DNA from: Promethearchaeota archaeon
Lineage (GTDB): Archaea > Asgardarchaeota > Lokiarchaeia > Sigyniarchaeales > SOKP01
Assembly (NCBI GenBank): GCA_019058365.1
Contig: JAHPZE010000001.1
Coordinates: forward strand, 256,001-320,000
Direction: 5' to 3'
Length of the DNA stretch: 64,000 bases
In this document: one piece after another, positions 58,203 to 62,810 of the stretch
Position numbering within the stretch: position 1 is the first letter of the stretch
Layout: every line of letters begins with the position of its first letter
The notes under the pieces: generated by a model
What the model was told of the DNA's origin: nothing
Database searches by the model: none
The model's input: the letters and a program-made list of their open reading frames with translations, nothing else
Made by a program: the position numbers and the translations under genes

Positions 58203-58712
58203 TCATTGAGGTTTAAATCCATTATTCAAAATTATTTTTGTAGCCATCTTAGCAACTTTCCCTACAACAGTAGAACAATGTTCTATCATTCCTGATTTAA
58301 ATGCTTCTTTCTGCTCATCAGGATTCCAGAGATTATATGTCCTTCCCACCAGTTTCTCTTGAACGTCATAACATCTGCAGGATCCATATTTTTTTATATA
58401 CTTATCATGCAATTGCTTGACTAATTCATATGATTTCTCCGGTTTATACCTATCCTTAAAATCTTTACGTTCTCTTCCAAAAAAGTATCCAATTGCCATT
58501 GAAGCGCCCACTAAGGCACCACAAGAACCATCTCCGGTTAAACCTAAACCATCCGCTAAACCGCTTGCTGCTTTGAAAACATCTTCATTCCATATCCCCA
58601 ATGAATCAAAAATGGCCGCTATAGCAGTCTGAGAACATCCCGTACATTCTTTTTCGTATTGTTTTCCTAATTCAAATGCCTTTTTAACAATTTGTTCGTT
58701 CAATTCTATCAT
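58203..58712 (-). CDS. C-GCAxxG-C-C family putative redox protein
   Basis: CTGCSQT, GSCGALVG, YGSCRC, EHC. Confidence 0.88.
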   Translation of the reverse strand: MIELNEQIVKKAFELGKQYEKECTGCSQTAIAAIFDSLGIWNEDVFKAASGLADGLGLTGDGSCGALVGASMAIGYFFGRERKDFKDRYKPEKSYELVKQLHDKYIKKYGSCRCYDVQEKLVGRTYNLWNPDEQKEAFKSGMIEHCSTVVGKVAKMATKIILNNGFKPQ

Positions 58713-58825: not shown

Positions 58826-59623
58826 TTGAATACTTTCCCATATAGACCATTTGAATCTAGGATTGATAAAATTCTAAAAAGAATACCAGCACTTGGTAAA
58901 CTACTTTCTAGTTTGTTTGGTCTTGTTGAACGCATGATTCTTGATTTATTTCGAAAAATTGATATGAAATTTAATATATACACGATGGGAATTGTTAATA
59001 AGTTTATTTTAAGGGGCAGATGGGGTGGAAAAGTCATTCCTTTAAACAAGAATATTAGTTATGATGCAAAATTCATATCTTCCCAAGAAATATTAAAAAT
59101 ATTAGAGCGTTCATCGGTAAGGGGGATTAGTTGGTGCTATTGTAGAACTACTCAACGAAAATATGAAACGCCAAATTGCGATCACCCGATAAATACATGT
59201 ATACATTTTGGTTTTGGGAAGACTCTTTATGAAATACCCTTTAAATCGTACAATCTAAAAAAAGTGTCAAAAAAAGAAATTATTGATTTATTAGAAGAAT
59301 GCGATGAGAGAGGTCTCGTTCATCAATTAATTTATTTTCCAAATCCACAATTTTACTATATCATATGCAACTGTTGTCCATGTTGCTGTGTTATTCTTAA
59401 TAAATTTATTAAGTATGGTTCTCCGCAGATGGTTAAAAGTGATTTCATCGCAAACACTAATTTAACTAAATGTACTAATTGTGGGACGTGTGAAACATGG
59501 TGTTATTTTGGGGCAAGACATCTTATTGATAATAAATTACATTTCAATTCAATACATTGTTTTGGATGTGGTACTTGTGTCTCAAAATGCCCTAATAAGG
59601 CAATAACATTAATAAAGAAATAA
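58826..59623 (+). CDS. 4Fe-4S dicluster protein
   Basis: CYCR, CDHPINTC, GLVHQ, ICNCCPCCC, CTNCGTCETWC, CFGCGTCVSKCP. Confidence 0.88.
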   Translation: MNTFPYRPFESRIDKILKRIPALGKLLSSLFGLVERMILDLFRKIDMKFNIYTMGIVNKFILRGRWGGKVIPLNKNISYDAKFISSQEILKILERSSVRGISWCYCRTTQRKYETPNCDHPINTCIHFGFGKTLYEIPFKSYNLKKVSKKEIIDLLEECDERGLVHQLIYFPNPQFYYIICNCCPCCCVILNKFIKYGSPQMVKSDFIANTNLTKCTNCGTCETWCYFGARHLIDNKLHFNSIHCFGCGTCVSKCPNKAITLIKK

Positions 59624-61132: not shown

Positions 61133-62143
61133 ATGATGAGATTTGTTTCTGGCTTAAAGAATCTGGCAAAAAAGAGAATTTTATTAGGTATTATTGTTCT
61201 TTTTATCGTTTCTTGGTTTTTATTCACGTTTGGATTTAATGTGTTTTCAAATATCAAATTTAGTAAATATTTTTTAATATTTCTAGCGATTTTAGCTGGA
61301 TTTACATTTATTTTGTTCATTATATCATTTATTATACCTCTTGATAAAATGGGGGTAATAATAATTATTATATCAACAGTTTTGACTCTACCTGTTATGT
61401 GGATTTTTGGAAGGATTATTGAAATTTTTAGAATTTTTTGTTATGTTGCTAATATTGTTGTTACCGCATTTTTTGCCTTTAAATTTTGTATGGATACATC
61501 TACTAAAATTGATGATTACTTATACAAAAAAAAAGGGTCTAGAATATTTATACGGCCTATAGAATTTATTATTTTTTTCCTTCTTAGTTGGTGGTTTACA
61601 TCTTTAAGCATCAGATTTTTTGTTAGTTACCCTAATCCTGCCATACAAAGTTTAGCAAGGGTCTTTTTTGATTTATTCTTGGTAGGTTTAGCATTATTAG
61701 GTGTAGTATTTATTAGATTATTATTTACAAAGAAGTTTGCTGCATATATTTCCTTCTTTTATGTATTAACATTCTTTTATGTTTTCTATATTATTATTGA
61801 TCTTTGGGCAGTATTTATTTTTCTTGATACTGTGGGGTATGATCTTTTATCATTTTTCATTGATTTTCTTTTGTTTTTATATATAATTGGATCTATTTAT
61901 GAAAGAGTTGATTACATAAAAGAAAAACTTAAATTATTTAGAGCTGATACAATAGCTTTATTCGTAATTTTAATGAAACTTATAGTTCAAATTATAGATA
62001 TTTTAAGAGAACTTTTTCCTCCCGCTGATGTAGTACCAGGGTTAATACTTCAAGCCCAAATATTGTGGATTTTCTTTATGGTTTTTACACTGATAGTTGG
62101 AATATACACTATTTTTAGACATAAAGAAAGAAAAAGCTCCTAA
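61133..62143 (+). CDS. Multi-pass membrane protein, unknown function
   Basis: About 10 hydrophobic helices. Confidence 0.7.
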   Translation: MMRFVSGLKNLAKKRILLGIIVLFIVSWFLFTFGFNVFSNIKFSKYFLIFLAILAGFTFILFIISFIIPLDKMGVIIIIISTVLTLPVMWIFGRIIEIFRIFCYVANIVVTAFFAFKFCMDTSTKIDDYLYKKKGSRIFIRPIEFIIFFLLSWWFTSLSIRFFVSYPNPAIQSLARVFFDLFLVGLALLGVVFIRLLFTKKFAAYISFFYVLTFFYVFYIIIDLWAVFIFLDTVGYDLLSFFIDFLLFLYIIGSIYERVDYIKEKLKLFRADTIALFVILMKLIVQIIDILRELFPPADVVPGLILQAQILWIFFMVFTLIVGIYTIFRHKERKSS

Positions 62144-62227: not shown

Positions 62228-62494
62228 ATGAAAATGAGCGAAGCTAAGTTAAATCTAAAAAGGAACAGAATTTTTAAAAAATTGATGATATATCTTTTCA
62301 GTGTAATTAGCCTAGTAGCAATTATCATAATAGTTATCACACTATTTGTCAATGTGGTGAATAATGAAATGAATGATGGTGGTTGTGGTTGAGGGGGCTT
62401 CATATTCCCTCCTCAAATAATACATTCAGTGATAAATTATCTTGTCGATTATACTCTTAAGCAATCATATCTGCTCTCAATAATTTTAATATAA
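62228..62494 (+). CDS. Putative small membrane selenoprotein (88 aa, Sec at codon 55, C-G-U motif)
   Basis: MKMSEAKLNLKRNRIFKKLMIYLFSVISLVAIIIIVITLFVNVVNNEMNDGGCG[TGA 62390-62392]GGFIFPPQIIHSVINYLVDYTLKQSYLLSIILI*; SECIS-like hairpin starts 3 nt after the TAA. Confidence 0.65.
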
Positions 62495-62496
62495 AA

Positions 62497-62563
62497 TCCG
62501 AAAGGAATGAAACTTGCTAAAAAAGATTGGTAGTAAGCAGACCCACCTCGCAATGGTTTCGGA
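62497..62563 (+). promoter_or_regulatory. Eukaryote/Loki-type SECIS-like 3'UTR element
   Basis: AUGA 62507-62510; stem CUUGCUA (62513-62519) / UAGUAAG (62531-62537); A-rich loop; GA 62540-62541; closing helix UCCGAAA (62497-62503) / UUUCGGA (62557-62563). Confidence 0.62.
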
Positions 62564-62657: not shown

Positions 62658-62810
62658 ATGGTAAAAGCAATATTATCAGTAAATGAAAGAAAAATTCCGT
62701 TAAAGGATTTCATGCAAGAGATGCTTACAAATATAATTCAGGGCTATTTAAAAACAACTAAAGGAGTTCCTGAAAACATTGAACATATTAAAATTGAAAT
62801 AGACCTATAA
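62658..62810 (+). CDS. 50-aa protein resembling the stand-alone MobB C-terminal domain, not in ORF track
   Basis: MVKAILSVNERKIPLKDFMQEMLTNIIQGYLKTTKGVPENIEHIKIEIDL (L.VN.K.IPL..F....L.N.I.G....LKG pattern). Confidence 0.65.
   Translation: MVKAILSVNERKIPLKDFMQEMLTNIIQGYLKTTKGVPENIEHIKIEIDL

Follow-up and report, generated by a model that had tools for sequence, protein, structure and literature searches.

A short Lokiarchaeia gene with a conserved in-frame UGA almost certainly encodes a one-helix membrane selenoprotein of an apparently unpublished family

Near the end of a 64-kb stretch of Promethearchaeota DNA (64,000 nucleotides, hereafter the window), a short reading frame is interrupted by an in-frame TGA. 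Does this codon end a small membrane peptide, or is it read as selenocysteine (Sec), as a preliminary description proposed? The frame itself was confirmed as proposed, from its ATG through the single TGA at codon 55 and the 33 open codons beyond it to the terminal TAA, and Cys53 indeed stands two codons 5' of the TGA (Table 1). The basic N-terminus and membrane helix were also recovered, the top 19-residue hydropathy window starting at residue 19, as was a GC-rich patch around the TGA (58% GC at 62375–62400, compared with 29% for the whole ORF). The window is G000:C16:256001–320000 in a host assembly of 4.74 Mb with 29.5% GC. The ORF occupies an intergenic gap between genes for a 336-aa membrane protein and a 50-aa protein, both on the same strand. 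Its true start may be the second ATG, because most relatives begin M-S-E or M-N-E. The gene is less hidden than had been thought: public collections do call the 54-aa truncated product, under an entry that carries no name.

Table 1. Coordinates, in the window, of the candidate selenoprotein gene, its RNA elements and its neighbours.
Feature	Position	Strand	Remarks
Selenoprotein ORF (predicted)	62228–62494	+	ATG 62228 gives 88 aa, ATG 62234 gives 86 aa; stop TAA 62492–62494
In-frame TGA, predicted to be read as Sec	62390–62392	+	codon 55; same TGA in 85 homologous loci
Basic N-terminal segment, residues 1–18	62228–62281	+	7 K/R, 1 E; predicted cytoplasmic (positive-inside rule)
Single transmembrane helix or signal anchor, residues 19–41	62282–62350	+	KD 3.1; helix in AlphaFold model
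Gly-rich flexible motif D-G-G-C-G-U-G-G	62375–62398	+	Cys53 at 62384–62386, probable partner of Sec55
Tail after Sec, 33 residues	62393–62491	+	weakly constrained, mildly amphipathic helix; gives UGA-to-SECIS distance of 117 nt
Hairpin overlapping the UGA	62389–62417	+	z −3.2
lokiSECIS, type I eSECIS-like element	62497–62563	+	lower stem 62497–62503 with 62557–62563
AUGA of lokiSECIS	62507–62510	+	starts 12 nt past TAA, 117 nt from TGA
Upper stem region of lokiSECIS	62511–62519 with 62531–62539	+	9+11+9 spacing
11-nt loop of lokiSECIS	62520–62530	+	opens with five A, closes with G
GA of lokiSECIS	62540–62541	+	29 nt after AUGA
Small side hairpin of lokiSECIS		+	within the 3' internal loop
Upstream neighbour, 336-aa multi-pass membrane protein without Pfam family	61133–62143	+	syntenic in 25/84 loci
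Downstream neighbour, 50-aa protein	62658–62810	+	resembles C-terminal end of MobB/FeS-domain proteins; syntenic in 31/84 loci

Conservation of the TGA, the first of the proposed checks, was found throughout the family. A single-protein search returned 12 relatives, all 12 with one TGA at the equivalent place, and profile searches extended the set to 85 TGA-bearing homologous loci from ~75 genomes; 85 is the number of loci extracted and read, and further genomes also have profile matches. Most of these loci belong to the host genome's own Lokiarchaeia-type family, in several genera, and three to another family of the same class (f6). In 400 genomes of the phylum, TGA-bearing homologues were seen in no other class. 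The protein profile found no match in the single-contig genomes G044 (4.4 Mb) and G055 (6.0 Mb), where the family RNA model is also insensitive. The relatives counted here and below are non-independent samples. Public collections hold 44 matches that are cut at the TGA, mostly 45–54 aa long and unnamed or hypothetical, and their full-length entries are mistranslations of the TGA as Trp. Depositors labelled the homologous fragments Promethearchaeota or Lokiarchaeota, with Thorarchaeota and Hodarchaeota once each; taken with the hdrA–vhuD plus lokiSECIS arrangement of the host genome, these labels point to Lokiarchaeia. A search for related loci with the single protein gave only two archaeal MAGs, and a database search for homologues with Cys in place of Sec found none.

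If the UGA were an ordinary stop, the product would be a 52–54-aa membrane peptide ending G-G-C-G, and the hairpin behind the gene would be a terminator or stability element. Databases do call the gene as ending at the TGA, the tail is poorly conserved, with early stops in some relatives, and helix-plus-polyglycine peptides with neither TGA nor SECIS exist (L054, L055). A plain stop would be expected to drift to TAA, yet TGA is kept in 85 loci; in the long frames of the host genome TAA makes up 72% of stop codons and TGA 14.8%, and the terminal stops of the family are TAA (64), TAG (10) and TGA (10).

The codons that follow the TGA also speak against a plain stop. A Cys stands at U+2 in 47/84 members, written both as TGT and as TGC, compared with 1% Cys elsewhere in the tails; selection therefore acts on translation beyond the UGA. 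Where the spacer to the SECIS is at least 90 nt long, the coding frame is fully open in 32/54 members, compared with 2 and 15 in the other two frames. The coding-type conservation sought downstream of the TGA is thus present in the first two to four codons, with the Cys at +2, and fails in the remainder, which is weakly constrained and dispensable. The dN/dS is 0.40 before Sec and 0.64 in the tail (23 pairs). Tail length ranges from 1 to 93 aa across the family, and 10/84 members have tails of one or two residues followed by a non-coding spacer up to the SECIS.

Behind the gene lies a hairpin that agrees with the published definition of the lokiSECIS, namely AUGA, a 9-bp stem, an 11-nt loop with adenines first and G last, and then GA or AA (PMC4989117). 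The element has the AUGA and GA, the stem, the A-run and final G of the loop, and the place near the end of the coding sequence. A conserved 3' hairpin had been predicted, and the same SECIS pattern occurs 37–125 nt past the TGA in 84/85 family loci; the remaining locus carries a SECIS variant with 27-nt spacing. The background rate of the pattern is 6/419 behind ordinary TGA stops (1.4%). Three A of the loop are invariant (alignment A4), the G is kept in at least 90%, and the central 6 bp of the stem are paired in 98.6% of cases across 47 sequences. Over the whole element, 89.5% of cells in these 47 sequences are paired and two-sided changes occur in 13/15 pairs. None of 500 shuffles reached this level of pairing, and slid controls, which preserve the relatedness among the 47 sequences, gave 33–48%. 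Single-sequence folding stability is unexceptional (z −0.86), a modest value that is expected because the element is a kink-turn with non-canonical pairs. In several members the UGA stops overlap the AUGA or sit within about 15 nt of it.

Covariance models built from the family elements alone found nine sites in the host genome at E<1e-3, all behind UGA-containing ORFs: three hdrA–vhuD pairs, a lone hdrA, vhuU, the gene described here, a paralogue and two ORFs with tandem UGA. In the 64-kb window, the element behind the gene is the sole significant match. By model, it is interchangeable with the hdrA, vhuD and vhuU elements of the same genome, and this gene has in-frame UGA, SECIS class and machinery in common with the known lokiSECIS genes (HdrA–VhuD, VhuU, PrxL and SelD; PMC4989117, PMC11227280). 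Rfam holds no family that matches the element. A loose SECIS pattern, run across the genome, was dropped after it matched 327 sites. A hairpin with the lokiSECIS features, whose model otherwise matches only UGA-containing ORFs, fits poorly with a terminator or stability element, and a search for a terminator-like site found none. Together with the Cys two codons past the TGA in 47/84 members, this leaves the plain-stop reading scarcely credible.

A second hairpin overlaps the UGA itself. It is present in all six members with the C-G-U-G motif, with z of −2.3 to −2.9 in the five others. As a family-wide feature it was rejected, the family median z being −0.3; in the C-G-U-G subgroup it could be a recoding aid or a by-product of Gly and Pro codons.

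The host genome holds the full Sec machinery that such decoding would need, with SelD, SepSecS, PSTK, EFSec and tRNA-Sec all present. Two selD genes lie in tandem (G000:C30:28235–31818, minus strand), each with an in-frame TGA; both have a type II-like SECIS directly past the stop. PSTK is represented by a PSTK-like KTI12 protein and EFSec by a factor scoring 240.9 bits on TIGR00475, ~5 kb from the SepSecS gene, both by family-model match. The tRNA-Sec(UCA) gene, located through a relative's tRNA, lies beside SepSecS at G000:C34:23029–23181 (plus strand) and has two introns, one of ~34 nt in the D loop and one of 30 nt in the T loop, which is why the Rfam model missed it. Once spliced, it is called tRNA-SeC(tca) by ARAGORN; relaxed ARAGORN runs that allow introns returned only noise. 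The tRNA-Sec genes of two close relatives (G002, G031) have no introns. A 23-nt near-copy of the 5' end of the host's tRNA-Sec lies at C34:22631–22653, ~400 nt upstream of the gene.

On this sequence evidence, the ORF almost certainly encodes a one-helix membrane selenoprotein of 86–88 residues. With high confidence, we predict that tRNA-Sec and EFSec insert Sec at the UGA of codon 55, directed by the lokiSECIS in the 3' UTR, 117 nt downstream. When selenium is scarce, translation would end at the UGA and leave a peptide of 52–54 aa.

Family members have a common layout of basic N-terminus, one helix, ~12 polar or acidic residues, a Gly run, Sec and then a small residue, with Gly at each of positions −4 to −1 of Sec in 48–67% of members. 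The linker from helix to Sec has a median length of 12 residues and on average 0.2 K/R and 1.5 D/E. On average there are 4.4 K/R residues ahead of the helix and 0.2 behind it, and the N-terminal side is the richer in 80/84 members. By the positive-inside rule, this asymmetry predicts that Sec is outside, a topology derived from charge bias alone. The basic N-terminus would then be cytoplasmic and the helix would cross the membrane once, probably holding Sec ~12 residues beyond the membrane on the outside, at the end of a flexible Gly-rich linker. An AlphaFold model places helices at residues 3–47 and 62–87 with a disordered segment at 51–58, where confidence is lowest; the model as a whole is of low confidence (pTM 0.37; pLDDT 73–84 over residues 11–40). 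A fold search with it against the PDB found no match, and an Atlas query with a natural homologue (P0056) gave no usable feature match, only generic helical structures. The idea that the tail holds another membrane span was rejected, KD exceeding 1.6 in only 4/48 long tails and being 0.87 here. The tail would be largely dispensable; it would keep the UGA at a distance from the SECIS and, as a weak amphipathic helix, may run along the membrane.

What might an external Sec do? A Cys lies within four residues of Sec in 75/84 members, downstream in 57 and upstream in 18, and in none on both sides. The spacings are UxC, CxU, CxxU and UxxxC. U-x-C is the norm; the CxU form noted for this gene is a minority one, its subgroup having Cys at −2 and no downstream Cys. 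One Cys on either side, never on both, suggests a Se–S pair, and nine members without a Cys near Sec show that an intramolecular pair is not universal. Sec and its neighbouring Cys, which is Cys53 here and the Cys of U-x-C in most relatives, may thus plausibly form a reversible selenenyl-sulfide. The protein would then be a foldless, membrane-tethered redox finger, trading electrons with proteins of the cell surface through their disulfides or oxidants. In one member (L042, genome G097), possibly a two-Sec form (U-x-C-U), another in-frame TGA comes after U-P-C; the frame stays open beyond it, and the SECIS lies 117 nt away.

The main rival to a redox finger is that Sec and Cys act at the cell surface as ligands for, or sensors of, a soft metal or metalloid (Hg, Cu or As), or that the protein is a cheap selenium sink or sensor. 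Short unstructured Sec/Cys sites of variable spacing suit chelation as well as they suit redox chemistry, and bacterial metal-handling selenoproteins exist (PMC13188914). The family also bears a weak likeness (E 0.058) to the FeoB-associated Cys-rich membrane proteins (PF12669), which are likewise very small and have a helix followed by a Gly/Cys(Sec) motif. That match is far under the cut-off, however, at 14.1 bits compared with 27, no feoB was among the neighbours examined, and no metal transporter or resistance gene is among the recurring annotated neighbours. Moreover, there is a single Cys and never two, as a Se–S pair predicts, whereas a chelator would profit from extra ligands. We regard metal or metalloid binding as possible but rather unlikely.

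The gene neighbourhood varies by genus and includes an uncharacterised membrane protein, an MFS transporter, an ARMT1-like phosphatase, TrmB and an FGGY kinase; the recurring annotated neighbours give no redox context. A DsbD/CcdA-type membrane gene adjoins the paralogue in four loci, and a search of the host genome for a DsbD_TM gene found none. In the window, a gene for a C-GCAxxG-C-C family redox protein (PF09719) in its Cys form lies at 58203–58712 (minus strand), 3.5 kb upstream of the selenoprotein gene and divergent from a 4Fe-4S protein gene at 58826–59623.

The basic–hydrophobic–polar layout would also suit a cleaved leader, either a signal peptide or a double-glycine leader, with the product released as a selenobacteriocin- or RiPP-like selenopeptide. 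Gly-Gly directly precedes Sec in ~60% of members, the public protein calls end in GG, and a selenobacteriocin family that carries an SGUG motif is known from bacteria (PMC13188914). Against this, the part left after cleavage would be anything from 2 to more than 40 residues long and is under weak constraint, the hydrophobic stretch, at ~22 residues, is long, and the recurring annotated neighbours include no radical SAM enzyme, peptidase or ABC exporter. The bacterial small selenopeptides (selenobacteriocin TIGR04081) are, as here, very small and combine a helix or leader with a Gly/Cys(Sec) motif, but they use an in-frame bacterial SECIS, and no NCBIfam selenopeptide or other selenoprotein model matches the family. 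We therefore consider a released selenopeptide improbable. For the chain as a whole, from Sec decoding through an external Sec to a Sec/Cys redox finger, the balance tips slightly in favour.

The preliminary description had further likened the gene to eukaryotic SelK and SelS in design. This holds for the single helix, the Gly-rich run before Sec and the ~10/84 members that end U-G or U-x-G; it does not hold for the linker, which is polar and acidic, or for the predicted side of Sec, which is the opposite one, and there is no Pfam match. SelK, SelS and the family each have one hydrophobic helix and a Sec in a Gly-rich disordered stretch, without a thioredoxin fold. In SelK and SelS, however, Sec is cytosolic, second or third from the C-terminus, and follows an extended cytosolic stretch with many Gly, Pro and basic residues (PMC9344019), whereas here it is predicted outside and followed by 33 residues. 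Association with p97/Derlin complexes is a further mark of the SelK/SelS family. SelK also has no Cys next to Sec, while Sec in the family is usually internal with a Cys nearby.

Were the family a true archaeal homologue or forerunner of SelK/SelS, its Sec would be cytoplasmic and its role would lie in membrane-protein quality control. The helix and Gly-rich run are as expected of such a relative. The C-terminus reads P-P-P-N-G-G-G-(G)-U-G or U-C in members from genus g18, strikingly similar in layout and the closest, and G-T-G-U-G in others, Sec being the second- or third-last residue. Eukaryote-like SECIS elements are shared by Asgard archaea, and layout, not sequence, is also what unites SelK and SelS (PMC9344019). 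Yet PF10961 and PF06936 had no match at E≤10 at the locus, and neither appears in the list of 25 families given for 43 members. The linker has ~12 acidic or polar residues, compared with ~50 in SelK (residues 43–92), the charge bias points Sec outwards in 80/84 members by prediction, Sec is 34 residues from the end in this protein, and the TGA-bearing homologues seen among the 400 genomes are confined to one class. The C-terminal position of Sec looks repeatedly derived, because short-tailed forms are sister to long-tailed ones at several places in a weakly resolved tree (short, with motif columns included and all rows kept, and used qualitatively only). Such homology is accordingly very doubtful, and it would be a long shot, too, that a helix-plus-Gly-rich-Sec module with a eukaryote-type SECIS was ancestral to SelK/SelS and has diverged past profile detection. 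From these comparisons, the family is somewhat SelK/SelS-like in design, and homology is not supported.

Several other genes came to light beside the family. The paralogue (L079, G000:C35:~296880–297252, plus strand) encodes a predicted single-pass selenoprotein with an acidic linker and the motif D-D-D-C-F-U, and has its own SECIS 112 nt past the TGA. Its relatives are L132 and L133, and a related C-K-x-U group (L126, L129, L140, L150) is adjoined by a convergent DsbD/CcdA-type gene. The two tandem-TGA ORFs are neighbouring paralogues without a Pfam family (C34:292076–292584 and C34:290299–290784, plus strand; loci L084/L186), with the motifs G-C-U-U-E-K and A-D-U-U-A-D and a SECIS each. The tandem TGA is kept in 8/8 closest loci read, seven of which have a SECIS 116–136 nt behind it, and by sequence these ORFs are a second unlisted selenoprotein family.

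A HesB-like ORF, recognised by eye, in family f7 (L205, G060:C3:~786450–786945) has an I-G-U-G-G motif and a SECIS; HesB-like is absent from the seven listed Asgard families (PMC11227280). Matches in families f13 and f18, from other Asgard classes, were excluded as members, being Cys-repeat membrane peptides without Sec or SECIS. These peptides (L159:2481–2786, L161:2520–2837, L162, L163, L165–L168) have a basic end, a single helix, C-x-x-x-C repeats and a hydrophobic tail, and often lie in tandem behind a DUF2085-like membrane gene. The helix-plus-polyglycine peptides mentioned above (L054:1443–1650 and L055) end G7-T-I-F-G and have no Sec, Cys or SECIS; their genomes (G117, G119) carry the selenoprotein elsewhere.

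The Asgard selenoproteome has been described as seven families, found by homology to known selenoproteins: SelD, FrhA/VhuU, HdrA, FrhD/VhuD, Prx-like, AhpF-N and DsbA-like (PMC11227280). The same 2024 survey detected no eukaryote-specific selenoprotein family in Asgard archaea, a 2026 review puts the archaeal total at 11 families, with the same set for Asgard archaea (PMC13188914), and a SECIS-first search of the original Loki data reported no further candidate (PMC4989117). No Pfam or NCBIfam model matches our family above cut-off, and it has no homology to any of the seven. A literature search, with subscription papers outside its reach, found no description of it. The proposal of a previously unannotated Asgard selenoprotein family is thus strongly supported by the conserved TGA, the covarying SECIS, the full machinery and its absence from both lists; the family appears to be real and unpublished, and to use a known decoding system. 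Homology-based surveys probably missed it owing to its tiny size, its membrane anchor and its lack of a catalytic domain and of a Cys homologue.

The published Asgard families are named as soluble enzymes or their subunits. The protein described here is unrelated to them, tiny and membrane-anchored, without a folded catalytic domain, and no Cys homologue of it was found; its family would be a minimal membrane anchor that presents Sec, probably outside the cell. Its recovery indicates that SECIS-first searches reach Asgard selenoproteins that are invisible to homology searches. With functional-looking spacings of 37–125 nt, the family offers a natural series in which to ask how close to the UGA a lokiSECIS can lie, and it is a concrete candidate for asking whether the SelK/SelS-type design is ancestral or convergent.
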